Positions 3,225-28,440 of a DNA stretch of 64,000 bases are shown piece by piece. Made by a program: the position numbers and the translations under genes. This DNA comes from Nitrososphaerota archaeon. Its GTDB lineage: Archaea; Thermoproteota; Nitrososphaeria; Nitrososphaerales; Nitrosopumilaceae. Position 1 is the first letter of the stretch, and each line of letters begins with the position of its first letter. Below the pieces are notes generated by a model. The model was given only the letters and a program-made list of their open reading frames with translations, ran no database searches and had not been told where the DNA came from. The stretch spans positions 996,727 through 1,060,726 of the forward strand of contig JAGWFT010000001.1 of assembly GCA_028867755.1 (NCBI GenBank), given 5' to 3'.

Positions 3225-3226
3225 TT

Positions 3227-8999: not shown

Positions 9000-10010
9000 G
9001 TGAGTAATTTAGAAGAGGTCAGTCATAGGGTAAAAGAGACAAACGCTTCAAAAGTTGTAAATGAAAATTTCAATCTCAATATCACAATATCAAAACTAAA
9101 ACGAAATACGCACGCTCTTTCAAAAAACTATGATGTCAAAAAGTATCTAGACTCAAACAAATTTACTTTCTCGCCTGAAATATCAGAGCTTATTCCAAAA
9201 GACACTCCACCGTATATAGACAACGGTGAGATGTATGTAGAAAGAATTGCAAGAGCAATGGCATTTTTCAAACAATGTGCCCTAATTGGTCCTAGCGGTA
9301 CTGGAAAGACACACATTGTATATTTTGTGGCAGAGCTTGCTGGGCTACCCTTGTGGGAGATAAATTGTGGTCTGCAAACCTCAGTTTTTGATCTTTTTGG
9401 TAGATATGTAGGCCTTGGAAAAGAGAACTGGATAGATGGCCTTATCACACTGTGGTGCAGGCATGGCGGAATTTTGTACCTTGATGAGGCCAATATGATG
9501 AAACAAGATATTGCAACCAGGCTTAACCCTATCTTAGATCAGCGTGGGCACATGGTACTGACTGAAAAAGACAATGAAATCATACAACGTCACAATGATG
9601 CTTTTCTTATAATCAGCATGAATCCAGTGTCATCAGAATTTGCAGGAACAAAACCAATTAATGCTGCAATGAGGAGGCGCATGAGTGTCTGGCTGAACTT
9701 TGATTACATGAGTGTAGGAAATAAAATTGATGAGAAAGAAATTGATTTGCTAGAGAAAAAAACTGGCATTGATAGAAAAAATGCAGAAAGAATAATACGA
9801 ATTGGTGCAGAACTACGAGAACGATACAAAAGAGGCGAACTTCCGTATGGACCGTCTATTGGGGACCTGATAAACTGGGCAAAACTGGTATCAGATGGCA
9901 CAGCTTTGAAGAGTGCAGGAGAAGAAACTATAATTGCACTTACAAGCGATGATCCTGAAATTCAAGAGATTGTAAGAAAGATAGTTCACAAAAATGCCGA
10001 TAGCCTATGA
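9000..10010 (+). CDS. MoxR-type AAA+ ATPase (CbbQ/NirQ/NorQ/GpvN-like)
   Basis: Walker A GPSGTGKT, Walker B ILYLDEANM, AMRRR arginine finger region, C-terminal lid PSIGDLINW. Confidence 0.9.
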   Translation: MSNLEEVSHRVKETNASKVVNENFNLNITISKLKRNTHALSKNYDVKKYLDSNKFTFSPEISELIPKDTPPYIDNGEMYVERIARAMAFFKQCALIGPSGTGKTHIVYFVAELAGLPLWEINCGLQTSVFDLFGRYVGLGKENWIDGLITLWCRHGGILYLDEANMMKQDIATRLNPILDQRGHMVLTEKDNEIIQRHNDAFLIISMNPVSSEFAGTKPINAAMRRRMSVWLNFDYMSVGNKIDEKEIDLLEKKTGIDRKNAERIIRIGAELRERYKRGELPYGPSIGDLINWAKLVSDGTALKSAGEETIIALTSDDPEIQEIVRKIVHKNADSL

Positions 10011-11593: not shown

Positions 11594-11611
11594 ATTACCA
11601 TTTCTGGTAAT
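11594..11611 (+). promoter_or_regulatory. Perfect inverted repeat ATTACCA-TTTC-TGGTAAT
   Basis: 7-bp perfect palindrome ending 5 nt before pilin ATG (11617); function inferred. Confidence 0.45.
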
Positions 11612-11616
11612 AAGGT

Positions 11617-12303
11617 ATGTTCATAAAAACAAAGAACAGAAAGGCAATCAGTGCCGTGCTTACTACGCTGATTATCTTGGTGGCATCAGTAGTTCTTGGA
11701 ACAGGTGTTGTATTATTTGGTACAAGCCTTTTCCAGACAAACGCCCAATCATCGGGTCTGGCCGCCCAAGGTACTCACGTGTGGGTAAATGCAACTACCG
11801 GAATGACTAAAACCTACGTGTGGGGTGCTGCAGAAATACGAAACAGTGGAGACAAGATATTGTCTGTAGACCAGATTAGTGTTCGTGGTACTCAAATACC
11901 ATTTGCAAACTGGTACTATGACAGTAATCCAAATGACGTCACTGCCGCAAACTTCCAGTCTCAGCTTAACTATACTGGAACTGCAACAACTGCAAATCAG
12001 GTCGGTGGTGTTGTAGCAGGTGAGATGCAATCTTATGGTGCTAAGCAAAACTGTCCTACCGCAAGTGCAACCTCATTCTACATCAATGAATTTGGTTCTG
12101 CGGCAAATCCAACAAATCCAACACTGTGCTTCACACAAGCAAGTGGCCCAATCTCACTGAAGCCAGGAGGCTCAGCAATTGTGTACTTCCAAGTTCCTAC
12201 CGGAGTCTTGAGTACAGTTGATGGAGGCTCTAGCAGCAGTGTTGCAATATATGCTGGTAGCGTAGGTGCACCACAATCGGTTACTGTACAAAGCCAATCC
12301 TAG
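11617..12303 (+). CDS. Type IV pilin, probable major pilin
   Basis: Class III signal MFIKTKNRKA|ISAVLTTLIILVASVVLGTGVVLFG; directly upstream of assembly ATPase. Confidence 0.88.
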   Translation: MFIKTKNRKAISAVLTTLIILVASVVLGTGVVLFGTSLFQTNAQSSGLAAQGTHVWVNATTGMTKTYVWGAAEIRNSGDKILSVDQISVRGTQIPFANWYYDSNPNDVTAANFQSQLNYTGTATTANQVGGVVAGEMQSYGAKQNCPTASATSFYINEFGSAANPTNPTLCFTQASGPISLKPGGSAIVYFQVPTGVLSTVDGGSSSSVAIYAGSVGAPQSVTVQSQS

Positions 12304-12304
12304 A

Positions 12305-12342
12305 GGGCCAAAAAATGCCCAAACTCTTTTCTTTTTTATTTT
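12305..12342 (+). terminator. Putative intra-operon terminator/attenuator
   Basis: GGGC-8 nt-GCCC hairpin (12305-12320) then T-rich tract (12325-12342); GGAGG SD-like site at 12344-12348 follows. Confidence 0.45.
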
Positions 12343-12355
12343 CGGAGGATAGCAA

Positions 12356-13900
12356 ATGAAAGAGAGATCAAACCAAACCAAAGAAATTGAAAGTTTTCTG
12401 ACAAGTCAAATTATTGATGGAAATCAAAGTCATATTCCTCCAGGATATGAGGTGGTTAAAAACTATCAATTGCAACCACCGTTTAGTTATGCCAATATTT
12501 TGTATAACCAAGAAAAATCTTCATATCTCTATTTTGTAGACGAGTCTAAACTAAATCAAGACGAAACGTTGATCTTTCAAAAATTGTATAGACTCATAGA
12601 AGAAAGCCTAGAGTCGCCAACAGAACTAAAAAGTAACCAAAATTTTGATGACCACTTGAGTATGATTCTAAAAGAAAATGAAAAAATGTTTTTGGGCCAA
12701 TCAAGTGCTAGCATGGAGAAGGTAAAGTACTATCTAAAGCGAGACATCAATGGCTTTGGTGTCATAGATCCTTTGATGCATGATATTGGCATAGAAGATA
12801 TTAGCTGTAGTGGAACTGAAAAACCTATTTTTATCTGGCATAGAAATTATGATAGCATTCCAACTAACATACGATACACATCTAATGATCTTCTAAACGC
12901 GTTTGTTTCAAGAATAGTTTTCAGGGCTGGAAAACACATAAGCTCGGCATTTCCAATCTCTGATCTTGCACTGCAAGGAAACCACAGAATCTCTGTTCTT
13001 TATCAAAAAGAGGTAACTCCAAAGGGAACAAGCTTTACAATAAGAAAATTCAAGGAAGACCCTTACACTGTTATTGATTTAATCAAGTTTGGTACAATGA
13101 GCCTCCCAGTTGCCGCCTATCTGTGGATGCTGGTGGAGTCAAAAATGTCATTTATAATAATAGGCGCCACAGGCAGCGGTAAGACAACCATACTTAATGC
13201 AATTACTGGTCTGGTTCATCCCGATTACAAAATTTTTTCAGTTGAAGATGTGGCTGAAATTAACATAAATCACGAAAACTGGTTTACTCTTGTTTCAAGA
13301 AGTGGTTTTGGCCTTGGAGGCGAAGGTGAAATTGGTTTGTATGACTTGATAAAAGCTGGTGTAAGACACAGGCCTGACTATATTGTAGTGGGTGAAATTA
13401 GAGGCTCTGAGGCTTATGTCATGTTTCAGGCCATGGCGACAGGTCACGGTGGTTTGTGCACTATGCATGCAGATAGTCTAGAATCTGCAATAAAGAGATT
13501 GCAACAAAAACCAATGGATATTCCTCCGTCATACATCTCATTGATGAACTGTGCTGTAGTGATTAAAAGAGTAAAAGAAAATTCAACAGGTCAGAGTAGC
13601 AGACGAGCTATAGTTGTATCAGAAATTATTTCTTCTGATTCATCACATGCTGCTTTTTCATGGAACCCAAAGACTGATTATTTTGATGATGACCTCAAGG
13701 AGAGTATCCTGTTTAAAAGAATGGTAGCGTCAACAGGGCGTGACATGAGGGAATTATTAAAAGAACACCAACAAAGAATCTCGATTCTAAAGTGGATGCT
13801 TGAAAATGACATTCGCAATTATAAAAAAGTAGCCGAAATAGTTGGGAAATACTATAGAGACCCAGAATCTTTGATGCAGAAAATGGAAGTAGGAGTTTAA
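12356..13900 (+). CDS. Type II/IV secretion system ATPase (FlaI/PilB/TadA family)
   Basis: Walker A GATGSGKT, RHRPDYIVVGEIRG, His box GHGGLCTMHA. Confidence 0.95.
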   Translation: MKERSNQTKEIESFLTSQIIDGNQSHIPPGYEVVKNYQLQPPFSYANILYNQEKSSYLYFVDESKLNQDETLIFQKLYRLIEESLESPTELKSNQNFDDHLSMILKENEKMFLGQSSASMEKVKYYLKRDINGFGVIDPLMHDIGIEDISCSGTEKPIFIWHRNYDSIPTNIRYTSNDLLNAFVSRIVFRAGKHISSAFPISDLALQGNHRISVLYQKEVTPKGTSFTIRKFKEDPYTVIDLIKFGTMSLPVAAYLWMLVESKMSFIIIGATGSGKTTILNAITGLVHPDYKIFSVEDVAEININHENWFTLVSRSGFGLGGEGEIGLYDLIKAGVRHRPDYIVVGEIRGSEAYVMFQAMATGHGGLCTMHADSLESAIKRLQQKPMDIPPSYISLMNCAVVIKRVKENSTGQSSRRAIVVSEIISSDSSHAAFSWNPKTDYFDDDLKESILFKRMVASTGRDMRELLKEHQQRISILKWMLENDIRNYKKVAEIVGKYYRDPESLMQKMEVGV

Positions 13901-15367
13901 TTGATTTTGCTTTCTTTAAAAAAACTTGACCAGGGGGATTATGAAAAGAAACAAAACAAAAAGATAGAAAGAGAACTACCATATTTCATAACACTTGTAT
14001 CCTTGCTTGCATCAAGCGGGCTGGGGCCGTATACTATTTTACAAAAGATAAAAGAAATCAATCTTTTGCCAATAATTCATGGAGAAACCATAAAGATCCT
14101 CAAACGTATTGATATGCTTGGAATAGATCCTCTCACTGCACTAAATCAGACAAAAGACAAGCCGTCCTCTAGAGCTCTCGGAGAATTTCTTGGAGGTTAT
14201 GTGTCTGCTATTCAAAGTGGTGGAAATGTAATCAATTACCTAAAAAGCAAAATGTCAAGCTCATATGATAGACTTGAGAATACAGAAAAACAGTCAGTAG
14301 AGAAACTAAGCGGTACTGTGCATGGCTGGCTAACGATGCAGATTGTTGTCTTGTCCGTGTTTATTCTAGTTGCGGCCATTGGTTCAAATCCACTAAGTTC
14401 TAACGGCGCAAGTCACCCAGAACCACCATATGCACTTTTGATTTTTTCACCTATAATTTCAATCGCATTTATGAAAATGGTTCAAAAAATGAATTATTCA
14501 AACATTCCAGAAATCGCGATAAAAAAGATATTAAAATCTACTTTGCCTCCCTTTCTTGTAGGACTAGTACTGATTGCAAGCAACCTGCTTTCAGACTTGA
14601 ATGCTAATGCTTACATTTTGGGTGGTTCCTTGGTGATTGGTTCTTTATGGCTAGCAATTAAATTCAAAAAAATTTATGTTGCAAATCTACATGCAGAAGC
14701 TGCAACGCCACAAATTCTCCGAGATATCACAGAGGCAAGAAAATCTGGTATGGGACCTGAAAAATGTATCATACATGCTTGCAAGAGAAAAGATTTCAGA
14801 TCATTTAACATTGTTGCAAATACCATAGCAAACAAGCTTGAATGGGGTATTCCATTATCTAACATTTTTGAAACACTTCATAAAGAAGTCAAGAATTTCC
14901 AAGTATTAATTACTTTTAGAATATTGTTTGAAATCATCTCTTCTGGTGGGGGTAATGTCAATACACTTGATTCATTAGCTGATGCTAGTGAAAAGATCCA
15001 CGACATTTCAAAAACCAAGCGTGATATGCTTCAGCCATACGTGATAGTTGGTTTTATGGTAATTGTAATTACTGGATTTACCACTCTGTTAACAATAGAC
15101 TCTTTTGCAGACATTGATAAAGAAAAAAATCTAGTCCACAACGATAATGCACAAACATCTAGCATGCCAAATTCCTTACTTGATGTTGTTTCTATTGCTG
15201 TAATTGTACAAGCATGGTTAGCTGGACTTTTCATCGGAAAAATAACAAAGGGTGCCTATTCTGGAGGGTTCATGTATTCGATGCTACTTACTATAATTAG
15301 CATGGTTGCTATAGGAATGATCCAACTCCATGTGATAAACATAGGCTCTATTCTCCAACCATCCTAA
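13901..15367 (+). CDS. Type II secretion system F family platform protein (FlaJ/PilC/TadC-like)
   Basis: Two T2SS-F repeats (IERELPYFITLV..., ATPQILRDITEARKSG) with multiple TM; adjacent to ATPase. Confidence 0.9.
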   Translation: MILLSLKKLDQGDYEKKQNKKIERELPYFITLVSLLASSGLGPYTILQKIKEINLLPIIHGETIKILKRIDMLGIDPLTALNQTKDKPSSRALGEFLGGYVSAIQSGGNVINYLKSKMSSSYDRLENTEKQSVEKLSGTVHGWLTMQIVVLSVFILVAAIGSNPLSSNGASHPEPPYALLIFSPIISIAFMKMVQKMNYSNIPEIAIKKILKSTLPPFLVGLVLIASNLLSDLNANAYILGGSLVIGSLWLAIKFKKIYVANLHAEAATPQILRDITEARKSGMGPEKCIIHACKRKDFRSFNIVANTIANKLEWGIPLSNIFETLHKEVKNFQVLITFRILFEIISSGGGNVNTLDSLADASEKIHDISKTKRDMLQPYVIVGFMVIVITGFTTLLTIDSFADIDKEKNLVHNDNAQTSSMPNSLLDVVSIAVIVQAWLAGLFIGKITKGAYSGGFMYSMLLTIISMVAIGMIQLHVINIGSILQPS

Positions 15368-15410
15368 TGAGTATGTCACGAAAAAAGTCATACCGCCTCT
15401 TATATCATCT

Positions 15411-18107
15411 TTGAAGATACATATGAATAATTTGAGATACATAGCAGTAGCCTCGCTAATTGTTTTGGCAATTCTTCCACATTATGTATTTGCTGACAAT
15501 GGTAACCAGCTTGATACTACACTAATACCAAATAAAATAATTGCAAACACTGATGGTATAATTCAGGTCTACCCAAAAAGTTTTGGTAGCACAATTAGCA
15601 GTATGGTAGCTACATCATCTGATTCTTCAATAGTGCGGATTCTAGATGTAGGAAAAGATGTCTCTCATGATATTTTTAATGTAAAGATTAAGGCATTGAA
15701 CTCAGGTCAGGCAACAATTAACATGGCAGCATCAGGTTTTGCCTCTCTAGAGTTGCCAGTTACCATCTATCCAGATTCTAAAGGAGCCACGAATCTTTTA
15801 ATCAAAGCAACTCCGAAAACTTTTTCAACGTCAGGACCAAATACTGGTTATATTTCTGTAGAAACCGTCAACGCTGATGGGGTTCCGACTCCTGCATCTG
15901 TTGATACTCCAATAAAACTAAGTGTATCAGATAGTAGCATTGCAGGACTGGCCGATGATCAAATGATGATAAAACAAGGTTCATACTTTGCCATGGAAAA
16001 ATTTGCCATAGCAAAGCCTGGCAGTGTTCAAATATATGCATCTGCACCTTCAATGCAGCCTGTATCAGCATCAGTCACGATTAATAATGAGGCTGTACCG
16101 TACACACTCCAAGTTTACGCATATCCGCCAATAGTTAATGTCAATAAAGATGCAGTGTCGTATGTAATAGTCCAATTACATGACTCTGCAGGAAATCCAG
16201 TTATAGCAAAAAATGATATTCATGTATCAGTTAGTGTCGTAAATCCTGTAGACACAACATCAGTTAACACAAGCGGTCAAAGTCCATCTGTGCAGGTAAA
16301 CGATGGTTTTGTTATACAAAAGGGCTCTTACTGGGGATATGTTCCTGTTGAATTTACTGCTGGTGTGAATGCAACGTATAATGTAAATATTTCAGCTAAA
16401 GGTTACGTAATTAGTACAATTCCTGCTAGTACAACAGTTACAACTAGTACTACAGCTACTACTGGCACAACAGTGCCTGGTGGTGGAACATCTACTAGTG
16501 GTACAACAACTACCACTAGTACGACATCTACTAGTGGTACAACAACTACCACTAGTACGACATCTACTAGTGGTACAACAACCAGCGGTACGACAACTGC
16601 AACTGGTACAACAACTGCAAGTAGCACATTGGCCTCAATTTGTACATCAAATCCAATTTCAACCTCAGAGTCACAAGTACAAATTGCTGCTGTCGCACAA
16701 AATTTTGTTATGGATGACAAGACACCATGCTTTTACCCTCTTCCAATTCTTACAACAGGCAACACAGAGTTAATTGGAGTTTTAGCTTTGAAAGACTCAT
16801 CAGGTTATCCAGTGCTTGCAAAATCAGATCTATCATTTAGAATGGATTCGTCTGATGTGTCTACAGTTTCTGTACCAGGCGTGGAAATGGGGTATGGGTC
16901 TCAATCTGCCCTTGTCTTTGCTCAAATTGGCAATGCTGCCAATCCAGTAACACTAAATGTTGTTTCAGACAGTCCTCAGCAGGTAATGCCAGTCATGGCA
17001 TCTCCCTCTCAGGTGACATCAGGTTTGGTGGCTGATTCATTACTTCCAACTGTTTTGCCAAATACGCAATTCCCACTGGCGATTTACGCTACAAATAATG
17101 GCGCTCTCGGCACATTTAAGAACGATTTTACTGCCTTGATCTCTCCACAAGAAACAATCTCGCCTATACAATTGACCGTTACAAAAGGTGATCCGATATT
17201 TCTTACCGACGAAACATTGCTTGAAGGCGGCCCCCAAAATATTGCAATCACAACACCAGATTACTCATCCAATTTCATTGTGACAGGGGCATCATCAAAA
17301 CCAAATGGTATTGTACTTGGTTATCCAGATCAAATTTTTTCAAATAGTAATTTATTGTTTTCAATCGAGTTGTTGGATGATAAACAACTCCCAATACTGG
17401 CTGACAAAGATACTGATATCAAACTAGTTTCAAGTGATCCGTCTGTACTTGATGTGCCAGATAATGTGCAGATAAAGAAAGGTACCTATTATGCAACACT
17501 TGATGCTCACTCCAATTCGTCTGGCACTGCAGAGATTGCAGTACTTGCAGATGAAATACCTCTATCAAAATTTGATGTGCCAGTTACAAGCTATGCACCA
17601 GTAATAAGCATCGACTCGGCTGATCACGCGGACAATAATTCTCCACTTACAGCCACTGTGACAGCTACCTACAATCAATTACCTCTTGCAGGTCTTAATG
17701 TGGATTGGTCGGTAACAGGTGCAACAACAAAGAACGCCGATACCATTACAGACAAAGAAGGTAAAGCAACCATCTCGTTAATCACAAACGATCCTAGTAC
17801 AGTTAGTATAGAGGCAGGCGTTGGAGGAGGACCATATCAAACTGTTACAGTCGATAAGCAAGTCAGTATCAATCCGCCATTGCAGCCTCTCATCTCAACA
17901 GGCCAATCTGGGCAATCTAATTCACAGTCATCTGGTTTTACAGTAATGGGTGTTAGTCCTCTTTTGTTTATTATTCCAGGTGCAGCAGCTGCTGCATTTG
18001 TAGTTTTAAAAAAGAAACAAATGCTAGATGGAATTACCGAAAAAATCAACATTACAGATAGATTTTCAGAAATAAAAGAAAGAATGATGGACTCTGGCCA
18101 ACGATAA
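15411..18107 (+). CDS. Large secreted, C-terminally anchored surface protein with repeated Ig-like domains and T/S-rich linker
   Basis: Sec-type signal peptide, four internal repeats, Thr-rich block, C-terminal TM followed by KKK. Confidence 0.8.
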   Translation: MKIHMNNLRYIAVASLIVLAILPHYVFADNGNQLDTTLIPNKIIANTDGIIQVYPKSFGSTISSMVATSSDSSIVRILDVGKDVSHDIFNVKIKALNSGQATINMAASGFASLELPVTIYPDSKGATNLLIKATPKTFSTSGPNTGYISVETVNADGVPTPASVDTPIKLSVSDSSIAGLADDQMMIKQGSYFAMEKFAIAKPGSVQIYASAPSMQPVSASVTINNEAVPYTLQVYAYPPIVNVNKDAVSYVIVQLHDSAGNPVIAKNDIHVSVSVVNPVDTTSVNTSGQSPSVQVNDGFVIQKGSYWGYVPVEFTAGVNATYNVNISAKGYVISTIPASTTVTTSTTATTGTTVPGGGTSTSGTTTTTSTTSTSGTTTTTSTTSTSGTTTSGTTTATGTTTASSTLASICTSNPISTSESQVQIAAVAQNFVMDDKTPCFYPLPILTTGNTELIGVLALKDSSGYPVLAKSDLSFRMDSSDVSTVSVPGVEMGYGSQSALVFAQIGNAANPVTLNVVSDSPQQVMPVMASPSQVTSGLVADSLLPTVLPNTQFPLAIYATNNGALGTFKNDFTALISPQETISPIQLTVTKGDPIFLTDETLLEGGPQNIAITTPDYSSNFIVTGASSKPNGIVLGYPDQIFSNSNLLFSIELLDDKQLPILADKDTDIKLVSSDPSVLDVPDNVQIKKGTYYATLDAHSNSSGTAEIAVLADEIPLSKFDVPVTSYAPVISIDSADHADNNSPLTATVTATYNQLPLAGLNVDWSVTGATTKNADTITDKEGKATISLITNDPSTVSIEAGVGGGPYQTVTVDKQVSINPPLQPLISTGQSGQSNSQSSGFTVMGVSPLLFIIPGAAAAAFVVLKKKQMLDGITEKINITDRFSEIKERMMDSGQR
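16488..16582 (+). repeat. 36-bp perfect tandem repeat x2.6 (ACATCTACTAGTGGTACAACAACTACCACTAGTACG)
   Basis: Copies at 16488-16523, 16524-16559, partial 16560-16582; in frame, encodes TSTSGTTTTTST. Confidence 0.95.
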
Positions 18108-20885: not shown

Positions 20886-21991
20886 GACAAGTAGCTGTTG
20901 CTTCTGGTGGTCTCACCAGATTTACCAAAAATGATCTATCCCTTGAAACACTTATGGTTTCTTCTGTAAAACAAATTTTTGAAAAAACTGAGAACCTAGA
21001 ACAAAAAGACATTGATGTAGTATTAATATCGACAAATGCAAATGACAAATACTTGGCAAACATTGTATCAGAATTATGTGGAATATCACCTAAAATTGCA
21101 CATTCGATAGAAAGCCTGTGCAATTCTGGAACTAACTGCATTGTATCTGCATATTCATATATTTTATCAGGTCTTGCAAAGACTGCCCTAGTAATAGGTG
21201 CAGAAAAAACTAACAGTCCTGGGCTTGTATTGGAATGGGATAAATCTAGAGGACAGTACAAACATCCGATTTATTGGTCATCAATGTTTACAAGTGCACA
21301 TATGAGAAAATTTGGTACAACATCAGAAGATCTTGCTTATGTCTCAGCCAAGAACCACAGAAATGCACTGGATAACCCATATGCTTATTTTGATAGAGAA
21401 TACTCCTTACAAGAAATTACAGAATCAAAAAATCTGACTGAGAATGTGAGATTATTAGATTGTTCAATGTCGTGTGATGGTTCTGCTGCAGTTTTGCTTA
21501 CCTCAAGTGATATCGCCACAAAATTTACAGACAGGCCAGTCTGGATAACTGGAATAGGACAAAAGTCTACTTCTGCTGGCTTTACAAAGAATGATGATCT
21601 TACATCTATGAAATCAACTGCTTATTCTGCTTCTGATGCATACCAGATGTCTGGTAGAAAACCAACTGATGTAGATGTTGCAGAATTACATGATGCTTTT
21701 AGCATATGTGAAATTATTGAGCTTGAAGACCTTGGATTTGTAAGTAAGGGGCAGGGGTCTTCTTACGTGCACCAACTATATGACTCACATGATAGACGAA
21801 TAAATCCTCGTGGTGGTTTGATTGGTGCAGGACATCCACTTGGCGCTACAGGTATTGCTCAGACTGTAGAAATTTGTCAACAGCTACAAGGAAATGCTAA
21901 AAAAAGACAAGTGGATGGAGCAAAGGTAGGTCTAGTTCACAATATGTCTGCTGCAGCAACGTCTTCAACTGTCATGATATTGGAATCATGA
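20882..21991 (+). CDS. Thiolase family protein (acetyl-CoA acetyltransferase)
   Basis: SLCNSG, ELHDAF, GHPLGATG, HN motifs. Confidence 0.9.
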   Translation: MRQVAVASGGLTRFTKNDLSLETLMVSSVKQIFEKTENLEQKDIDVVLISTNANDKYLANIVSELCGISPKIAHSIESLCNSGTNCIVSAYSYILSGLAKTALVIGAEKTNSPGLVLEWDKSRGQYKHPIYWSSMFTSAHMRKFGTTSEDLAYVSAKNHRNALDNPYAYFDREYSLQEITESKNLTENVRLLDCSMSCDGSAAVLLTSSDIATKFTDRPVWITGIGQKSTSAGFTKNDDLTSMKSTAYSASDAYQMSGRKPTDVDVAELHDAFSICEIIELEDLGFVSKGQGSSYVHQLYDSHDRRINPRGGLIGAGHPLGATGIAQTVEICQQLQGNAKKRQVDGAKVGLVHNMSAAATSSTVMILES

Positions 21992-22317
21992 CCAAATTTG
22001 AACAAGAACTAAAGAACAATAATTTTCTGTGTAGTCATTGTACTACATGTGATAAGCTAGTATGGCCACCAAGTGATTTTTGTAATAACTGTTTTAGTGA
22101 TGTTGTTTGGAAACCAGTTTCACGGTTTGCAAGACTTATCGAGTTTTCACGCAAAGACAATGAGTATTTTTGCATAGCAGAATTTGAAGAAAATATTAGA
22201 GTAATGGGAAGTATTCAGAATTCATCTAATTTGAAGATCAATCAACCTCTGTTTTTAGTAAAATGTGATTATGATGGTATCGAAAGGTTTGTGTTCGAAC
22301 CAGTTTTAACGTCTTAA
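21988..22317 (+). CDS. DUF35-type Zn-ribbon/OB-fold protein (thiolase partner)
   Basis: CTTC..WPP..FCNNC then OB-like strands; 4-nt overlap with thiolase. Confidence 0.85.
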   Translation: MTKFEQELKNNNFLCSHCTTCDKLVWPPSDFCNNCFSDVVWKPVSRFARLIEFSRKDNEYFCIAEFEENIRVMGSIQNSSNLKINQPLFLVKCDYDGIERFVFEPVLTS

Positions 22318-23109
22318 TTCTTTAAACTCGCTATCTATCTTTTCTTTCTTGAAGATCTTGATATGATCGTATACTCCAAATGAGAACAAAAGATAACTCC
22401 ACAAAAATACTATGTCTACTGGATGTCCTGTATAATACGTATTAGTAAAAGTTGTAAGCTGAAAACCGGCATCTGCAATTGTTTGTAGAATAATAGCAAG
22501 ACAAATCAGTGACCATGTGAAATTTACCTCTCCTCTAAAAAATAAAGCAACTCCAATTAGAGCTGGAACTAATAATATTGCATCAGCTATAGGATAACTT
22601 GTCGCCAGCGTATTCTCGAGCATACTAACTTTAGGATCAAAGTCATATGCCATGTAGACACTTGGAATAGATATGGCAACAGAAATCAAAATTGCAGATA
22701 TTATCATTCTCCTTGATATGGCGCGTGTAACAGGTCTTAGGTAATAAATCAAAAAACAAAAAAGTAGTGGATACCCAGATATGAAAAATACATCAGCCAA
22801 TGAAGGAAAAGGACTAATTTTGAAAACTAGTTCGTATGTTGACCATATTGTTTCTGCAATAAACCATGAAATTGAAAACCCAAGAAAAAATAACCATGCT
22901 TTACCATGATTACCAGCCTGCCTGAATCTTAAACATAACCCAGCAGATAATGCAACCTGCGCAGCAGTTACAGGAATATACACGATATCTGTTACTATCT
23001 TAACAGTCTCCTTTCCTAGAAATGTTGCAAATACTATGAGTACTCCTACAAATATTATACTATAAAGTAATGATATCTGTACACTATTTCTTGGATAATG
23101 AATATGCAA
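22306..23109 (-). CDS. Stand-alone 7-8 TM sensor-like membrane protein
   Basis: GKAW, PSLADVFFISGYPL, HPVD motifs; no cytoplasmic kinase/cyclase domain; paralog of 24810-25613. Confidence 0.75.
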   Translation of the reverse strand: MHIHYPRNSVQISLLYSIIFVGVLIVFATFLGKETVKIVTDIVYIPVTAAQVALSAGLCLRFRQAGNHGKAWLFFLGFSISWFIAETIWSTYELVFKISPFPSLADVFFISGYPLLFCFLIYYLRPVTRAISRRMIISAILISVAISIPSVYMAYDFDPKVSMLENTLATSYPIADAILLVPALIGVALFFRGEVNFTWSLICLAIILQTIADAGFQLTTFTNTYYTGHPVDIVFLWSYLLFSFGVYDHIKIFKKEKIDSEFKELRR

Positions 23110-23112
23110 ATT

Positions 23113-23400
23113 TTAATTCCCTATCACATTGACCATTCTTTGGACTGTACTGTCTTCAAGATGCTCCATTAATTCTATCTTGATTGATTGTGATATAGCA
23201 ACATGGGAGTTGCCAAAGACAGATTTTAGCACATTATTGAGATAATCTGGATGCTCATAACAGTCTGGAATATAACAATGATATTCCTTGTATAATTTAA
23301 TGGACACTTTGTCAAGTATGGGCTTGCCTATGTCTAAAAGTACCTTTTCAATATAAAATGACGTCAACGCTTTCATCACTTGTTTTTTATCAATATTCAT
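23113..23400 (-). CDS. Small helical domain protein (DUF3227/NitrOD-like, from memory)
   Basis: Aligns by eye with N-terminus of 25597-26232 (G...DK....L...Y...E...L..VL...FG). Confidence 0.7.
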   Translation of the reverse strand: MNIDKKQVMKALTSFYIEKVLLDIGKPILDKVSIKLYKEYHCYIPDCYEHPDYLNNVLKSVFGNSHVAISQSIKIELMEHLEDSTVQRMVNVIGN

Positions 23401-23486
23401 CTAGTCAACACCTAGTTTGTCACAGCCAGAAAAGATTTTATCAAGAAACAAAAATTCTTTACAGATCTGTCTTGTGTCCATTTCTA

Positions 23487-24335
23487 CTAAGGATGTCTAG
23501 AGTTTGACCAAATGTAAGCGAATAATAATTTTAATGTATATACCATTGATAATGAATCAGTCCACATGGCAAGAATATTTTGGGGAGACTCACTTGGGTT
23601 TTTCATAAACAAAAGTAGTTCATCATCATCTTTTATGATAAAACATAGATCTTCTTTGATTTTCAATGGCATTCTTTTTACTTTGTCTTTTAACTTGCCT
23701 TCAAAAATATAGGTTGTTTTCTTTGAATTTGATGAAATGAATTGTGGTTCTACAATCGATGTTTTTATGCGTTCAAGAAACCCTGCATGATAAAATTTCA
23801 TAAAGTCTTTTTCTGATGCCAAAATCTGAATTGATTTTTTTGCATTATCAATCAAGTAGTTTATTTTTCCAGTCATTTGATTCGTGCCTTGTAATATTTG
23901 AAATCTTCCATCCTTGGTATCTTCTTTGTTGATTTTGAAGCTGGGAATAGTATTCCAGATCTCTACTAAATTCTTTTCTTGTGACTCTAGATTTTTTACT
24001 CGCTCTTTTTCTGCATTGATGAGAGTTCCTATGGCCTTATCAAGTGATAATGCTGAGAATCTAATAGGATGCTCAAAAGTGGCAGACACAATTCCCTTAT
24101 TTTGTAAATTGGTGAGAAGATAGTAAGTTTCAGTTCTTGGAATTTTCAGAGTTTTACTTATTTGTGTAGCAGTATTAGAGCCGTATTTTTCAAGATATAG
24201 ATAAACCTTGGATTGATTGGATGTAAGGCCAAATTTAGATAGCTCATTTTTGAGCTTTTCAAGTAGCATCTCATAGTCATTTGGTTTTGAGTCAAGCGAT
24301 GAGTCTAACACAGAAAAATTAGTAACAGTCGTCAT
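23487..24335 (-). CDS. TrmB-family transcriptional regulator (paralog of 3227-4081)
   Basis: GLTSNQSKVY...IPRTETYYLL..LQNKGIVSATF.HP. Confidence 0.88.
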   Translation of the reverse strand: MTTVTNFSVLDSSLDSKPNDYEMLLEKLKNELSKFGLTSNQSKVYLYLEKYGSNTATQISKTLKIPRTETYYLLTNLQNKGIVSATFEHPIRFSALSLDKAIGTLINAEKERVKNLESQEKNLVEIWNTIPSFKINKEDTKDGRFQILQGTNQMTGKINYLIDNAKKSIQILASEKDFMKFYHAGFLERIKTSIVEPQFISSNSKKTTYIFEGKLKDKVKRMPLKIKEDLCFIIKDDDELLLFMKNPSESPQNILAMWTDSLSMVYTLKLLFAYIWSNSRHP

Positions 24336-24438
24336 ATTGCGTAATTAATACAACGGTATCTTTAGAGATCTGTATGTATCATATAATTACACACTTTTGT
24401 TGTGCATAATTTAGGCGTGTGAAACTGCTTATCTTTAA

Positions 24439-24666
24439 CTACTGGATCTGCTCAGAGAGCAAAATGACTTCTTTTGCAATTCTTTGGAATTGTCTTCTGG
24501 TTGCTTCATTCATGTCATGAACTTTTTTCACTTGAATGATTTCAAACATTATTTTTATCATGGATGAAACTGTTAACTGGCTTACAGGTTTTTTGCTGAT
24601 CTGAATTTTGTCTATGTTCATTTGTTTTGTTTGTGAATTAAGCTTGTTTGCTGTCAATACTGACAT
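24439..24666 (-). CDS. Small hypothetical protein
   Basis: 75-aa ORF co-oriented within cluster. Confidence 0.55.
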   Translation of the reverse strand: MSVLTANKLNSQTKQMNIDKIQISKKPVSQLTVSSMIKIMFEIIQVKKVHDMNEATRRQFQRIAKEVILLSEQIQ

Positions 24667-24809
24667 ATTTTTCTTAAGTTATATTAGCATAAAAATATGT
24701 CCTGCCAAAATTGGAAATATATTTTATTATTAACTATAGCTAAGTAACAAAATAATGTGACACAGCCTAGATCAAAGAATCATATTAATTGATTTTATCA
24801 AAACTGTTT

Positions 24810-25613
24810 CTAAATAATTTTCTGATGTTTGTAGAGTGCATATGCTATTACTAGATAGCCGGCATAATAACACATGTTCATTGGATGAGTCAGAGTGTAT
24901 TGATCAAATGTATCCAAGTAACCATACCAAATATCGCCTGTGGTAGTAAGTATGATTCCAATTAGTAGAACTAACCATGCAACCCCCAGCACTCCCTGTC
25001 TGAATATTCTTGCACCCAACATTGTTCCTGAGAGTACAATAGAAGACAAAACTACGTAAGTTAAACCACTAAAGAATGTTAAATCAGGATGCCCAATTTT
25101 ACTATAGGACAAGTAACTATACACTGATGTAATCACTATTGGAATAGCTACTACCCATGCTTTTGTCAAATACCCAATTTTTGGCTTGAAGAATCGTATG
25201 TTTGAGATGAGGTGAACTAGAACTAGTGGATAAAATGAATAAAAAACAATGTCAGCTGCGGTAAAAGTCGTATCCATTCCCAAAGTATCGTAAACTCCAT
25301 AGATGATTTCTCCGCCTGCGTTCATGGCAAGAGCTAATGCCAAAGCAAGATATGCTTTGCCAAAAACTTTTGATCCTTTGTATTGTTTTGCCACATAAAA
25401 TCCAAACACTGTTGCAATTGATGGATTGATAATGGATACAATATCTAGTAGTCCTGATGCGTCATCAGGTTTTGGAAATGCGTAGTAAAGATATGCTTGA
25501 AAGGATACGATTAGTATAGCTATTGAAATTAAAATTTTATAATTTATTTTACTTGTAAGTCGTTCTGGTACAACCTCTGGCGTCTCTGAGTCTTTTTTAT
25601 TCCACCGTAACAA
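24810..25613 (-). CDS. Stand-alone 7TM sensor-like membrane protein
   Basis: GKAY, AADIVFYSFYPL, HPMN; paralog of 22306-23109. Confidence 0.75.
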   Translation of the reverse strand: MLRWNKKDSETPEVVPERLTSKINYKILISIAILIVSFQAYLYYAFPKPDDASGLLDIVSIINPSIATVFGFYVAKQYKGSKVFGKAYLALALALAMNAGGEIIYGVYDTLGMDTTFTAADIVFYSFYPLVLVHLISNIRFFKPKIGYLTKAWVVAIPIVITSVYSYLSYSKIGHPDLTFFSGLTYVVLSSIVLSGTMLGARIFRQGVLGVAWLVLLIGIILTTTGDIWYGYLDTFDQYTLTHPMNMCYYAGYLVIAYALYKHQKII

Positions 25614-26232
25614 GATGCTTTTCGCCCCTTAGCATCTGGATCATCATGCTGTTGCTGATAGATTCTTTTGTGAGTTGAACTTGCACTATTACTTTGTTTT
25701 TTTCTATCTGGATTCTAATATTTTCAAAGATTGATGCATATTTGCTTACTTTCTTACCATCCTGCGTAAATTCGTGTCCATTCACTACGAGAAATCCATC
25801 TTGGATCAACTTGTTGATTTTTCTATAGCCTGATGTCTGAGGAATATTGCAGGTCTCCAAAATATCTGAAATTATCTTGGGCTGGTCAAGTACGGCATCT
25901 ATTATGTTTTTTTTATCGTCATCACCAAATGACATTAAAATTAATTTGGCTAGATACCGATCTTCAATAGTAATCCATTCTTTAGCCTCCTTCTTAGCAC
26001 GTTCTATTGTCATCATGTGCTGTAAGAACTGTCTTTCTATGCCTTCTGCCCCATCGCCAAAAAATTCTCTTAAGACAGAATCTAGTTTGGGAAAATCTTC
26101 TGTTGCGTTAGTAAGATTTATTCCATATTTTTCAAAGAGTCTCTGTTCTATTTTATCAACTGTTTTCTGACCTAGATTATTTTTTACAATATCTCCTAGG
26201 GATTTCCCAATAAGGCTGTCGAATCCAGGCAT
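25597..26232 (-). CDS. Transcriptional regulator: small helical domain + winged HTH
   Basis: C-terminal wHTH (ISDILETCNIPQTSGYRKINKLIQDGFL); N-terminal domain similar to 23113-23400. Confidence 0.8.
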   Translation of the reverse strand: MPGFDSLIGKSLGDIVKNNLGQKTVDKIEQRLFEKYGINLTNATEDFPKLDSVLREFFGDGAEGIERQFLQHMMTIERAKKEAKEWITIEDRYLAKLILMSFGDDDKKNIIDAVLDQPKIISDILETCNIPQTSGYRKINKLIQDGFLVVNGHEFTQDGKKVSKYASIFENIRIQIEKNKVIVQVQLTKESISNSMMIQMLRGEKHLVTVE

Positions 26233-26327
26233 GCATTTCTTGTGAGTATATGCTTAAAATGCAGTTGTATGTCATTCAAAAATGTGACAAGGCTTATTTA
26301 TCGATCTGTATTTCCCAAATATGGGAA

Positions 26328-26837
26328 ATGAGCAGGCTAATTATCGATGAAAGTAATCTTAGGAGTCTTCCAGTCAGTGAACGATTAGATAAATGCCTAG
26401 GAATACTAATGAAAGAAACAGATGAATCTCTTAGATGGGATGCTGTATGGTTAGCAGGTGAAATAGCTGAGATCAGTGGACCTGATGATCCTATCTTTGG
26501 TAAAGTATCTGATCTAATGGCATGGGTTTTAAAAAATGAAGCAAACGGGGTTGTCAAGCATGAAGCTTGTTATCAAATTGCTGCTAGGAACATGAGGGAA
26601 AAGATCCCAGACCTGATCGATGTTGCGTTAAAAGATCCTAGCATTATAGCACGACATGAGTCTATCGAGTCGCTAGGCTTGATGCGTGCTTTTGATACTA
26701 AGGAGATGCTTGCAAGAGCTACAAACGATCCAAATCCAGATGTAAAGGAAACCGCCCTTTTTGTACTAAAGAGATTGGAAAGATTGGAAAAACTAGAGGA
26801 AAATAAAAAAACCTATCAACCATCCAACATTCTCTGA
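26328..26837 (+). CDS. HEAT/PBS-lyase repeat protein
   Basis: Repeats LRWDAVWLAG, VKHEACYQI, ARHESIESLG, VKETALFVL; start moved to ATG 26328 (MSRLII). Confidence 0.8.
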   Translation: MSRLIIDESNLRSLPVSERLDKCLGILMKETDESLRWDAVWLAGEIAEISGPDDPIFGKVSDLMAWVLKNEANGVVKHEACYQIAARNMREKIPDLIDVALKDPSIIARHESIESLGLMRAFDTKEMLARATNDPNPDVKETALFVLKRLERLEKLEENKKTYQPSNIL

Positions 26838-26879
26838 AGAATTCAAATTTTATCCGATTAATTATTGGTATTCTATGAA

Positions 26880-27401
26880 TTAACGCTGCTCAATTTTTGG
26901 CAATTTTGGAAACCTCACTTCTCGCAAAACAGTATAGGGTGTTTTCTTTGATTCGTCTGGTAGGATCAAATCTGTGTTGTCTGCAAAAGATGCGATCTCG
27001 TCGAAGATTTTGTTTATCTCCATATCTTTTTCTAATCTTTCCAGATATTTTTCACTCCATTCCCAATTGCTATCAGGATTGCAAGAATACACTATCCAAT
27101 GAAATTTACCTTCTACAAATAATATGTCAAAAGGATACGCTCTACAATCAAATGGTCTTTGTTCATATATACTACATAATTTTTTTTCTTCATTCCAAAA
27201 AACACAATTAGAAGAGTTTTGTTTTTTTTTCAAAGCTTTGACTTTTCTGCCTTTGATATCAAGTTCTTGTATGTATAGGTCTTGAGCCTTGCCAATAGAT
27301 TTGAGTGCCTCAAAGTCAGTAGAAAAAACTAGAGGAACGGTTGAATCTGTACAGCATCCATGAGAGGCACAGTTATCACACAATCTCTTAAAACTAATCA
27401 T
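26880..27401 (-). CDS. YkgJ-family cysteine-cluster protein
   Basis: CDNCASHGCC, NCVF...CSIYEQRPFDCRAYPF; start moved to ATG 27401. Confidence 0.88.
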   Translation of the reverse strand: MISFKRLCDNCASHGCCTDSTVPLVFSTDFEALKSIGKAQDLYIQELDIKGRKVKALKKKQNSSNCVFWNEEKKLCSIYEQRPFDCRAYPFDILFVEGKFHWIVYSCNPDSNWEWSEKYLERLEKDMEINKIFDEIASFADNTDLILPDESKKTPYTVLREVRFPKLPKIEQR

Positions 27402-28440
27402 GTTCCTTAATCTCATGTGTAGCACTTTGTTTTATTCCAACTAGCCTATTTCTAAGTAGATACAAGCCCACAAATGCGGTGGATACTGAAATTACATTTG
27501 TTATGGAAATTGTTTCGTGTAGAAATATGACAGAAAAGACTACTCCAAATGCAGAATTTATTGAATAAATCAAAATTGTTCTAACTGCGCCTATTAGTTT
27601 AAGACCTGTAACAAATAATGCTGTAGAAAGACCAATGCTGACAACACCAATTATTGCAATAGGAGGTATCTGAAGAGGGTTTATGTCTAATTTGATCTGT
27701 AATGCCAAGATGAGGCCTAGGGCAAAGCCTGCTGCCATAAATGAGGCAAGTTGGGTGATTCTTTGAGAACCTATTCTCTCGCTAACATACTTTGACATGT
27801 TAATATCAAGTGCCCAAAACAATCCTGCTGTAAGTAGAAGGATATCTCCTAGTACAAGTTTAGTCATCATCAAGCCATTGCTATAAATGTCATATCCAAC
27901 TGGTAATGCAATCATGCCAACTGTTATCATGGAAAATGGCAGTCGTTCCATTTTTTGTAATCGTTCACGAAAAACAATAATTGCAATTAATAGTGAAAAC
28001 AAAATCTCGCCATTATTTAGAACTGAGGCGTTTATTGCTGTAGAGTCATGCAAACCATAGAAATATGTAATGAGTGCAGAGCCTTCTGCAATACCTATAA
28101 AAATTAGCAAAATCAGATCTTTCTTTTTAATTTGTAAGATGGAATGGTTTTTTCTTGCAAGAGTGGTAAAAAAAATACCATTAACAATGAAGATAACAAA
28201 AGATATTGTAATAGGATTAAGATTGGATATGTCTAAAGTATCTGGAACTAGGAATGCCTTTGAAAGAATTTGACGAAAAGCTTCTAGTGTTGCAGCAATG
28301 ATAACTGCAATATATCCTAGTTTTGTGCTAGAGAATAATCCGGTATGATCGCTTCGAATTTTATCTATTCCTCCGGGTATCCCCATATTCGGAAATAACC
28401 TGGCAACCTTAATAACCTTAAATAGTACCTGTATTGACAA
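27394..28440 (-). CDS. DMT/EamA-family transporter
   Basis: About 10 TM in two EamA repeats (GLHDSTAINASVL, GLKLIGAVRT); true start may be downstream. Confidence 0.88.
   Translation of the reverse strand: MSIQVLFKVIKVARLFPNMGIPGGIDKIRSDHTGLFSSTKLGYIAVIIAATLEAFRQILSKAFLVPDTLDISNLNPITISFVIFIVNGIFFTTLARKNHSILQIKKKDLILLIFIGIAEGSALITYFYGLHDSTAINASVLNNGEILFSLLIAIIVFRERLQKMERLPFSMITVGMIALPVGYDIYSNGLMMTKLVLGDILLLTAGLFWALDINMSKYVSERIGSQRITQLASFMAAGFALGLILALQIKLDINPLQIPPIAIIGVVSIGLSTALFVTGLKLIGAVRTILIYSINSAFGVVFSVIFLHETISITNVISVSTAFVGLYLLRNRLVGIKQSATHEIKEHD

Follow-up and report, generated by a model that had tools for sequence, protein, structure and literature searches.

How a membrane protein that resembles the sensory part of a histidine kinase, and has no output domain of its own, might hand on a signal is the question raised by a small gene cluster of a Nitrosotalea-like genome of the Nitrosopumilaceae (an ammonia-oxidising archaeon). 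The window, i.e. the whole stretch of DNA analysed, spans 64,000 nt and the cluster comprises six ORFs (22306-26232), all of them on the minus strand and with the coordinates as first given (table 1). As had been proposed from the DNA sequence, two membrane proteins without any cytoplasmic output domain, 7TM_A and 7TM_E, are paralogues (26% identity over 170 aa, BLASTP E 3e-13), each is preceded by a homologous helical domain of about 80 aa, once free (H_B) and once fused to a wHTH (H_F), and the two copies are separated by a TrmB gene. This TrmB gene occupies the same position in genus g6 (74% identity), while the 75-aa ORF is unconserved, the ORF found at the equivalent position in G005 being without any similarity to it. 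A third pair is located outside the window and consists of a third membrane paralogue (C35:202011-202814) with a further H_B paralogue upstream of it.

Table 1. Genes of the cluster and other features of the window considered in the text.
Feature	Position	Strand	Description
CbbQ/MoxR-type AAA+ ATPase	9000..10010	+	AAA_5 + CbbQ_C; first gene of pilus operon
7TM_A	22306..23109	-	267 aa; stand-alone membrane sensor-type protein, A-type clade
H_B	23113..23400	-	95 aa; free-standing helical domain of the NitrOD5 family; 3-nt gap to downstream 7TM_A
TrmB-family wHTH regulator	23487..24335	-	PF01978 E 1.8e-14, above cut-off; between both modules
75-aa ORF	24439..24666	-	doubtful status; no family match (Pfam, NCBIfam)
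7TM_E	24810..25613	-	267 aa; the other stand-alone sensor-type membrane protein; E-type clade
H_F	25597..26232	-	211 aa; NitrOD5-like N-terminal domain + C-terminal wHTH; 17-nt overlap with 7TM_E
HEAT-repeat protein	26250-26837	+	Pfam match; conserved neighbour of E-type module
CxxCxxCC protein	26880-27425	-	Pfam match; conserved neighbour of E-type module
EamA transporter	27394-28440	-	Pfam match; conserved neighbour of E-type module

No Pfam model exists for the membrane domain, and 7TM_A belongs to no Pfam or NCBIfam family. Sequence comparison indicates homology with the N-terminal sensor of thaumarchaeal membrane histidine kinases, which are proteins of ~600 aa with 8 transmembrane helices followed by HisKA and HATPase_c, encoded beside a divergent REC gene: 7TM_A is 30-34% identical over about 250 aa to the N-terminal membrane domain of such kinases of related genera (E 1e-35 to 1e-45), and the motifs E..W, PFPSxAD, YPxxD, AD..F and YYxGHP are common to both. 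Six kinase-fused loci were retrieved, and the four of their kinases that were scanned all carry HisKA and HATPase_c; the divergent REC gene was confirmed beside one of the loci. Unlike these kinases, the window proteins stop about 15 residues past the last helix, with neither a DHp nor a catalytic domain. None of the genes on either side is a fragment of a kinase, and the 267-aa proteins are not pieces of split kinases in this genome. In the tree, 7TM_A groups with the kinase-fused forms and 7TM_E, orthologues of which are present in 17 of the 27 genera sampled, forms a separate deep clade.

A profile search with the membrane domain returned 7,082 clusters. The expectation that this domain is usually fused to histidine kinases or to diguanylate cyclases was right as to the former, with HisKA in 28 of 41 long homologues (24 of these also with HATPase_c), HAMP in 2 and PAS in 1, and not supported as to the latter, no cyclase fusion being found among the best long matches. 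Peptidase_M10, which is not a signalling domain, takes the place of one in 9 of the 41 and, along with the 8 transmembrane helices, four conserved acidic residues within the membrane or on its outer face and an EamA transporter gene as persistent neighbour, would suit a protein that is mainly a transporter or a membrane enzyme, with the helical partner (the NitrOD5 domain described below) as its regulatory subunit and the kinase fusions as sensors of the ‘trigger-transporter’ type. That such is the case appears very unlikely, however, given that kinase fusions dominate the long forms, that no similarity to transporter or enzyme families is found in Pfam or NCBIfam, and that the structure search yields receptor-like bundles only, with no outstanding transporter fold.

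The AlphaFold2 model of 7TM_A (pLDDT 88.8) shows 8 transmembrane helices, and not the seven first counted. Fold searches do not go beyond a generic similarity to 7TM bundles (Z 10-12, too low to be informative for helical bundles), sensory rhodopsin II (SRII) and rhodopsin bundles being among the weak matches. SRII is an archaeal stand-alone 7TM receptor that signals to a separate transducer, HtrII, by contact, and it offers an analogy in so far as a receptor without an output domain is encoded beside a dedicated transducer gene. Unlike SRII, the window membrane proteins have no retinal lysine, nor do they share sequence homology with it, and their partner is a small soluble helical domain, whereas HtrII is a membrane-spanning, MCP-like transducer.

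According to the topology and pocket predicted from the model and the positive-inside rule, at least 14 of 19 family-conserved positions fall in the outer half of the membrane protein. The prediction places the residues conserved family-wide (E86, PFPSxAD106, Y113, Y172-P-x-x-D176, D213 and Y225) around an acidic/aromatic pocket that faces outwards and may be a ligand or ion site; 7TM_E retains E, D106, Y172 and D213 of this pocket and lacks the PFPS prolines and D176. A further set of residues (Y62, G69-K-A-W72, F127, F190, G193 and H249) is enriched on the cytoplasmic face of the stand-alone forms only, including the window proteins, and is not conserved in the kinase-fused ones; this set may mark a docking surface, or could simply reflect shared ancestry.

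As for the partner, NitrOD5 is described in Galperin et al. 2018 (PMC5847659) as a response-regulator output domain (PF11537/DUF3227), is proposed there to be a promiscuous signalling adaptor, and is reported in 7 stand-alone copies in Ca. Nitrosotalea devanaterra. Unlike known NitrOD5 proteins, those of the window are missed by the Pfam model PF11537. The resemblance to DUF3227/NitrOD suggested at the outset is nonetheless borne out, in that REC-fused proteins, themselves weak matches of PF11537, are hit in their C-terminal domain by the H_B family HMM (E~1e-27); to judge from its sequence, the helical domain of H_B is the NitrOD5 output domain, homologous to the one at the C-terminus of REC–NitrOD5 regulators. 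Like the stand-alone NitrOD5 proteins, H_B is all-helical and in the range of 90-100 aa (AlphaFold2 model with 5 helices, pLDDT 87.7), and it is part of a multi-copy family, with 8 genes in this genome, H_B included, compared with the 7 reported for Ca. Nitrosotalea devanaterra. Among the structural matches of the model, PH0832 from Pyrococcus horikoshii ranks first and alone stands out (PDB 2p9x; Z 10.0, rmsd 3.1 Å over 84 residues; next match 5.9); this protein of unknown function is just 15-16% identical to the model protein and is matched by the NitrOD5 sequence profile at E 0.011.

H_F is a distant homologue, its small domain being 23% identical to that of H_B (pairwise E 3e-7), and comparison of ortholog alignments with hhalign relates it to the NitrOD5 family with a probability of 91.9% (E 7e-7, 78 columns). 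The NitrOD5-like domain covers about residues 1-80, and one H_F ortholog (L017) matches PF11537 at E 0.016; the C-terminal half finds small wHTH regulators of the same genome. Only 2 of the 8 NitrOD5 genes of the genome have a membrane-protein neighbour, the remaining one of the three pairs having the divergent H_F domain in place of a NitrOD5-family member; since the other 6 genes are without such a neighbour, the NitrOD5 domain has no need of this partner. Its fusions with REC, a CbbQ AAA+ ATPase, a class III cyclase and a Zn-ribbon are those of a promiscuous signalling adaptor. Targeted searches within PMC5847659 brought up neither the conserved pairing with a stand-alone membrane sensor domain nor fusions to CbbQ, a cyclase or a wHTH, and a search of the accessible literature for NitrOD5 gave no further paper.

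The gene pairing proved to be kept across 9-10 genera. NitrOD5 is adjacent in 22 of the 25 assessable A-type loci (9 genera), directly upstream and on the same strand in 19, and the E-type gene has an H_F-like gene, i.e. NitrOD5-like–wHTH, no more than 1.5 kb away in 17 of 27 loci (10 genera), a number that rises to 20 at up to 2.1 kb, the two genes being co-directional, divergent or convergent. Thus, the linkage outlasts rearrangement, which argues for a functional tie. In the tree, each membrane clade retains its own partner type, NitrOD5 for the A-type and H_F-like for the E-type, and the distance matrices of the partners give a Mantel r of 0.79, a value confounded by shared phylogeny. Stand-alone membrane homologues without a NitrOD5 neighbour also occur (L064, L070 and the distant P0226). 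All genomes compared come from one archaeal family, and kin are not independent, as would suit inherited synteny, with modules held together by descent and no functional tie; this is highly improbable, though, because the adjacency outlasts inversions and rearrangements while flanking genes differ, the pairing is present in three paralogous copies within one genome and, at another locus, a gene fusion puts NitrOD5 directly before the membrane gene.

The ‘kinase-free’ nature of the module in the original prediction holds for the window and for genera g6, g9, g26 and g3, in which the cluster has no kinase gene, and does not hold for g20, in which a REC gene and a divergently transcribed, sensor-less HisKA+HATPase_c core of 287-291 aa flank the NitrOD5–membrane pair. 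Given this core, the module may feed phosphorelays instead of replacing them. The stand-alone membrane protein and NitrOD5 might be co-sensors of conventional two-component systems, not kinase-free at all and feeding a soluble sensor-less kinase encoded elsewhere, in the way of the transporter or accessory co-sensors of DctA-DcuS and UhpC-UhpB. Several HATPase_c kinases and 5 REC proteins are encoded in this genome, and NitrOD5 is itself present on REC proteins, in keeping with such a role. It is, however, quite unlikely in view of the kinase-less clusters just listed, of the DNA-binding output that module 2 has of its own, and of the finding that no kinase of this genome carries the membrane domain.

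With regard to the outputs, the fusion of the NitrOD5-like domain to a wHTH in module 2 suggests that 7TM_E would control the transcription factor H_F directly, e.g. by sequestering or releasing it, and the HEAT, CxxCxxCC and EamA genes, which remain neighbours of H_F and 7TM_E in genera g6, g26, g9, g20 and g3, would be likely targets. Mlc is a transcription factor that is sequestered by a membrane protein, PtsG, and in module 2, similarly, the gene next to that of the membrane protein encodes a soluble wHTH regulator bearing an extra docking-type domain; unlike in Mlc–PtsG, sequestration is putative here, and the families are unrelated.

In module 1, the adaptor is free. The type IV pilus (T4P) locus next to it encodes a CbbQ/MoxR AAA+–VWA pair, which would be the likeliest downstream partner of this adaptor, with the intervening TrmB as a possible further one. 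Archaeal T4P regulators include a MoxR/GvpN ATPase–vWA pair and KaiC with a small Death-like helical protein, which was thereby already linked to T4P regulation (Makarova, Koonin, Albers 2016, PMC4858521). The pilus locus of the window likewise has an arCOG-type AAA+–vWA pair and a KaiC-like gene; unlike in that survey, the ties of the helical domain are here with the AAA+ ATPase, by fusion in g22, and with a sensor-type membrane protein rather than with KaiC. Indeed, the proposed KaiC connection finds no backing, the single KaiC-like gene of the genome being 19 kb away and adjoined by none of the 8 NitrOD5 genes. The suggested link to the pilus is strengthened by genus g22 (G022 and G047), where the syntenic pilus locus encodes, amid its structural genes, 428-aa AAA_5+CbbQ_C+NitrOD5 proteins that are 68% identical to the window CbbQ ATPase and are followed by an A-type membrane gene. 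A REC–NitrOD5 gene adjoined by a TrmB-like gene ends the pilus locus in both genomes, and signalling via TrmB is no more than hinted at by such neighbourhoods. The cluster is 13-17 kb from the CbbQ gene in g1 and g6; genera g20 and g26 have modules and no pilus CbbQ ortholog, and therefore pilus control is not the general output.

The g22 arrangement might also indicate a membrane anchor instead of a sensor, the 8-TM protein recruiting NitrOD5-tagged CbbQ AAA+, REC–NitrOD5 and wHTH proteins, e.g. near the pilus, with no perception of a signal; NitrOD5 is joined to many different effector domains, and no ligand of the membrane protein is known. This role is unlikely, however, as many histidine kinases, two of them with HAMP, have this domain as their N-terminal input, and the family-conserved positions cluster on the predicted outer, not the cytoplasmic, face, which would be needless for a passive anchor.

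From the homologies, domain fusions, conserved adjacency and co-segregation of clades with partners that were observed, we infer physical binding, a ligand pocket, a direction of signal flow and outputs under which the region would comprise a two-gene transmembrane signalling module in duplicate, its copies having diverged; this model, taken as a whole, has about an even chance of being correct. A plausible order is sensor, adaptor, output: the stand-alone 8-helix membrane protein would be the sensor domain known from thaumarchaeal histidine kinases, and the NitrOD5-family domain would dock from the cytoplasm onto the membrane protein of its own pair, on a face where residues are conserved only in stand-alone forms. 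The NitrOD5–membrane pair is, in this respect, a candidate system for kinase-less signalling that can be tested.

The region at 22306-26232 of the window, in a source genome of 1.64 Mb and 99.95% completeness, contains six ORFs, all on the minus strand and arranged head to tail (table); the database proteins most similar to those of the window carry the labels Nitrosotalea, Nitrosopumilaceae or Thaumarchaeota. Two modules can be recognized, each formed by a small helical domain and a membrane protein: module 1 comprises the adaptor H_B and the A-type membrane protein 7TM_A, module 2 comprises H_F, in which a related helical domain is fused to a wHTH, and the E-type membrane protein 7TM_E. The two membrane proteins are paralogues (26% identity, E 3e-13) and the two small domains are homologous, both in pairwise comparison of H_B with the N-terminus of H_F (23% identity, E 3e-7) and when their ortholog alignments (A3, n = 26, and A4, n = 18, respectively) are compared with hhalign (probability 91.9%, E 7e-7, 78 columns, i.e. 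nearly the whole domain). Thus, the duplication of a helical domain with a membrane protein, which the original prediction had read from the sequence, is real and well beyond chance. A third pair, followed by an HxlR-type wHTH gene, is found on contig C35.

Coordinates of the features discussed (window positions, unless a contig or fetched locus is named)
Feature	Position	Strand	Remarks
H_F	25597-26232	-	211 aa; 17-nt overlap with 7TM_E
7TM_E	24810-25613	-	267 aa
75-aa ORF	24439-24666	-	between TrmB and 7TM_E
TrmB	23487-24335	-	282 aa; PF01978 E 1.8e-14
H_B	23113-23400	-	95 aa
7TM_A	22306-23109	-	267 aa; start 3 nt past H_B end
zf-ChsH2/DUF35-type gene	21988-22317		convergent with 7TM_A; 3' ends overlap by 12 nt (22306-22317)
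HEAT-repeat gene	26250-26837
HEAT-repeat, CxxCxxCC and EamA genes	26250-28440
CbbQ-type AAA+ ATPase gene	9000-10010		heads the type IV pilus (T4P) locus
Region syntenic with the g22 pilus locus	2472-18107
KaiC-like gene	2472-3224
ArgZ-like / LOR-SDH family enzyme gene	55150-56379
Third pair, H_B paralogue	C35, 202820-203128
Third pair, membrane paralogue	C35, 202011-202814
NitrOD5 paralogue, N-terminal zinc-ribbon extension	G000:C24:704745-705209 (L004:5246-5710)		154 aa
NitrOD5 paralogue, C-terminal coiled-coil-like tail	C24:983191-983637		tail of 50 aa
Second NitrOD5 gene in G035	L067:811-1095		directly downstream of A-type gene
Kinase core in g20	L089:3393-4256, L090:3254-4129		287-291 aa

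The TrmB gene lying between the modules encodes an N-terminal PF01978 wHTH (53.7 bits versus a cut-off of 25.6), and its NCBIfam TrmBL1 match (E 1.3e-10) is far under the equivalog cut-off, so that it speaks for family membership only. The 75-aa ORF was set aside as a module component, since an ORF of like size at the same position in another genome (G005) has no sequence similarity to it; judged on this comparison, it may be no conserved gene. At the other end of the cluster, the zf-ChsH2/DUF35-type gene that converges on 7TM_A is the last of a block of thiolase, luciferase-like monooxygenase and nucleotidyltransferase genes, and this block lies between the module and the prepilin peptidase.

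Neither 7TM_A nor 7TM_E matches a family in Pfam or NCBIfam scans, the named sensor domains of Pfam (HisKA_7TM, MASE3/MASE4 and others) included, and a genome-wide search with PF16927 (HisKA_7TM) was empty at E<=10. Among 78 diverse stand-alone family members scanned with Pfam, PF16927 appears in only 2 (E 0.14) and no family recurs, while the Atlas scores of MASE3, MASE4 and HisKA_7TM against the membrane domain (0.78-0.80) are at chance level; a remote relationship to these domains may still exist. The AlphaFold2 model of 7TM_A has eight helices (pLDDT 88.8, pTM 0.85). Its likeness to GPCR/rhodopsin bundles is that of a generic bundle, both in Foldseek (best E 0.027, TM 0.42) and in VIA-align (Z 10-12, rmsd 4.4-5.6 Å over about 195 residues of helices 2-8, below the helical-bundle level of ~13); in the PDB, Foldseek found nothing significantly similar to this model or to that of H_B.

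The identity of the domain is instead indicated by its relatives. Proteins of ~600 aa in related genera are 30-34% identical to 7TM_A over the whole membrane domain, and all four of those scanned continue into HisKA and HATPase_c, with a divergent REC gene confirmed beside one. When 1.84 billion representative proteins were searched with a profile, 7,082 clusters matched at E<=0.001, many of them stand-alone proteins of 250-275 aa; the domains carried by the 41 long matches include HisKA (28), HATPase_c (24), HAMP (2), PAS (1) and Peptidase_M10 (9). As the same domain occurs N-terminal to HisKA and HATPase_c elsewhere, in the position of a kinase input domain, it is, on the strength of these architectures, a histidine-kinase sensor domain for which Pfam has no model. 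The fusion to histidine kinases named in the original prediction is borne out, but not that to diguanylate cyclases, GGDEF being found in none of the 41 long homologues. The nine Peptidase_M10 (matrixin) members of this set (alignment A2) have the peptidase in place of the kinase.

The alternative that 7TM_A and 7TM_E are pieces of a split kinase, which the original prediction had named as refuting it, is rejected for this genome, since HisKA/DHp and HATPase_c are absent from both proteins and from the neighbouring ORFs (all HATPase_c matches of the genome are located elsewhere), and the 267-aa form is kept as such in hundreds of clusters.

Both termini of 7TM_A are predicted to be cytoplasmic, as indicated by the distribution of Lys and Arg in the loops (16 versus 4, read from the sequence); a cytoplasmic C-terminus is likewise suggested by the fused relatives, in which the cytoplasmic kinase domain comes after the last helix. 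Nineteen positions are conserved in at least 70% of 123 diverse members: E86, W89, P100, P102, S103, A105, D106, F108, Y113, Y172, P173, D176, G186, W199, position 205 (Gly in the family, Ala in 7TM_A), D213, Y225, G228 and Y239. The inferred topology places at least 14 of these 19 in the outer half, and this clustering suggests, in the model, an outward-facing acidic/aromatic pocket. A second set (Y/F62, G69, A71, W/Y72, F127, F190, G193 and H249), which contains the GKA[WY] motif of the original prediction, is enriched in stand-alone forms only and lies entirely on the cytoplasmic face. These residues are a candidate docking surface; the same pattern could also come from shared ancestry of the stand-alone forms.

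With respect to the helical domain, the H_B family counts eight copies of 95-154 aa in this genome. In other genera, an HMM of these eight paralogues matches proteins of 215-231 aa at residues ~120-215 (E 1.6e-27 to 1.9e-23); these proteins carry an N-terminal PF00072 REC domain and, on the same C-terminal stretch, a weak PF11537 match (8e-5 to 3e-3). The combination is the architecture that Galperin et al. 2018 (PMC5847659) described as REC–NitrOD5, and the H_B family is homologous to the domain that serves as output in response regulators of this type. It also resembles NitrOD5 of Nitrosotalea/Nitrosopumilaceae in being stand-alone, multi-copy, all-helical and about 100 aa long; the same work gives seven stand-alone copies for Ca. 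Nitrosotalea devanaterra (PMC5847659). The likeness to DUF3227/NitrOD given in the original prediction is thus upheld, although PF11537 itself misses the window proteins: H_B, H_F and six other paralogues have no match to it (gathering score 27 bits) at E<=1, the whole genome has none even at E<=10, and H_B and H_F are also without a match in the NCBIfam scan. The PF11537 model is too narrow for this clade, as it is never above cut-off in 60 related genomes. Residues ~1-80 of H_F are homologous to the NitrOD5 family as well, by the comparison with H_B already described and by the PF11537 match of an H_F ortholog (L017, E 0.016); the relationship is distant, and iterative searches within a single genome left the two families separate.

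The AlphaFold2 model of H_B is a five-helix bundle (pLDDT 87.7), for which a single structural match stands out, that to PH0832, an uncharacterised protein (2p9x; Z 10.0, rmsd 3.1 Å, 84 residues; runner-up 5.9), a likeness backed by a sequence-profile match (E 0.011). The 'Death-like' label of the NitrOD5-type domain is taken from the literature; the similarity of the model to AIM2 PYD (Z 5.1), RIPK1/TRADD DD (Z 4.5) and Pyrin (Z 4.4) is within the background of unrelated helical proteins, with Foldseek TM-scores of about 0.4, values that speak neither for nor against the label.

NitrOD5 is found fused to several kinds of effectors. Besides the REC proteins and the wHTH of H_F, which carries a divergent form of the domain, it is joined to a CbbQ-type AAA+ ATPase and, in a metagenomic protein of 317 aa (P0271), it comes after a cyclase domain (residues 52-225) of the class III adenylate/guanylate type. 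Word-based searches for longer forms yielded none with one sequence as the query and this one cyclase fusion with a profile, and are weak as evidence on other architectures. Two paralogues in the genome carry extensions, namely an N-terminal zinc ribbon and a C-terminal coiled-coil-like tail, respectively. In four loci (L008-L011, g15 and g27), REC–NitrOD5 genes adjoin a 75%-identity ortholog of the ArgZ-like / LOR-SDH gene of the window, an ortholog of which also borders, in G047, on the pilus locus at its KaiC/TrmB end.

The pairing of adaptor and membrane protein was followed across genera, with the loci L023, L026, L028, L055, L062 and L063, from the unpublished genomes G077, G092 and G093, excluded throughout from the counts, alignments and claims. 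Among 27 A-type loci, two are cut by a contig end; in the 25 assessable ones, the membrane gene has a stand-alone NitrOD5 gene directly upstream on the same strand (17), a CbbQ–NitrOD5 fusion gene directly upstream (2), an adjacent divergent NitrOD5 gene (3) or none (3), i.e. NitrOD5 adjoins the A-type gene in 22 of 25 loci and nine genera. In G035, a genome of the same genus as that of the window, a second NitrOD5 gene downstream leaves the membrane gene with two flanking adaptors. An H_F-like gene is found within 1.5 kb of the E-type gene in 17 of 27 loci and 10 genera (divergent in nine, co-directional in four, convergent in four), and within 2.1 kb in three further loci. The gene pairs, whose conservation the original prediction had proposed to check, are therefore conserved, and a linkage that outlasts inversions is a classic indication that genes are functionally tied. 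In a quick maximum-likelihood tree, an E-type clade is set apart from one of A-type plus kinase-fused forms (SH-aLRT 100 for both), and each stand-alone clade retains its own partner type.

In g1, g6, g26, g9, g20 and g3, both modules are part of one supercluster, which often includes the genes for the HEAT-repeat, CxxCxxCC and EamA proteins. These three genes adjoin H_F and 7TM_E in five or more other genera, the EamA and CxxCxxCC parts being fused into one 500-aa protein in some genomes. H_F and the HEAT-repeat gene are divergent and 17-95 nt apart, so that the latter is a likely regulatory target.

As to the outputs, the strongest evidence comes from genus g22 (G022, G047), where the pilus locus is syntenic with that of the window. 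There, the CbbQ-type ATPase, 68% identical to that of the window, carries a C-terminal NitrOD5; the very next gene encodes an A-type membrane protein, and those for the minor pilin and LamG-pilin come after it. At the other end of the locus are genes for a REC–NitrOD5 protein and for a TrmB-like protein that is 40% identical to the window TrmB. This locus would indicate that module 1 acts on the pili by way of MoxR/CbbQ–VWA, a pair which Makarova et al. 2016 (PMC4858521) had already flagged as regulating T4P in thaumarchaea. In g1 and g6, 13-17 kb separate the cluster from CbbQ, and in g20 and g26 the modules are present without this CbbQ ortholog, so that the pilus cannot be the sole output. 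In g20, the pair of NitrOD5 and membrane genes diverges from a sensor-less HisKA and HATPase_c core, with a REC gene nearby, so that the module can also adjoin a phosphorelay; the core also has a coiled coil, and the nearby REC is stand-alone. A link to KaiC, the other route of the original prediction, is rejected on context: the one clear KaiC-like gene of the genome is 19 kb away and no NitrOD5 gene adjoins it.

The cluster is, in conclusion, real and conserved, and no artefact. That a receptor signals through a docked adaptor to a transcription factor or an AAA+ ATPase, a scheme drawn entirely from fusions and context, has about an even chance of being correct. A more specific version is distinctly more doubtful: a kinase-independent system of ammonia-oxidising archaea, in which an eight-helix receptor with an outward acidic/aromatic pocket (candidate signals being a cation, ammonium/amine or pH) would act directly via NitrOD5 on a transcription factor in module 2 and on the T4P-controlling MoxR/CbbQ ATPase in module 1. 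If true, NitrOD5 would be a general docking tag, plugging REC, AAA+, cyclase and wHTH effectors into membrane receptors.

Of the parts, NitrOD5 is catalogued and the kinase sensor domain is recognisable; targeted look-ups, which covered a portion of the literature, did not meet the conserved pair of stand-alone sensor and NitrOD5, its duplication into free-adaptor and wHTH-fused versions, or the CbbQ–NitrOD5 fusion in a pilus locus. According to Galperin et al. 2018 (PMC5847659), archaeal two-component signalling proceeds mostly via unknown protein-protein interactions, and NitrOD5 was left there without a partner. The locus offers a concrete and conserved candidate for this partner, a sensor domain without a Pfam model that comprises about 7,000 sequence clusters, and two fusions that nature provides as 'Rosetta stones', one to a wHTH and the other to the CbbQ AAA+ ATPase of the pilus locus, hint at the destination of the signal. 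Ammonia-oxidising archaea have small genomes with few recognisable regulators, and a receptor–adaptor pair steering transcription or surface pili, directly testable with purified proteins, would partly fill this gap.
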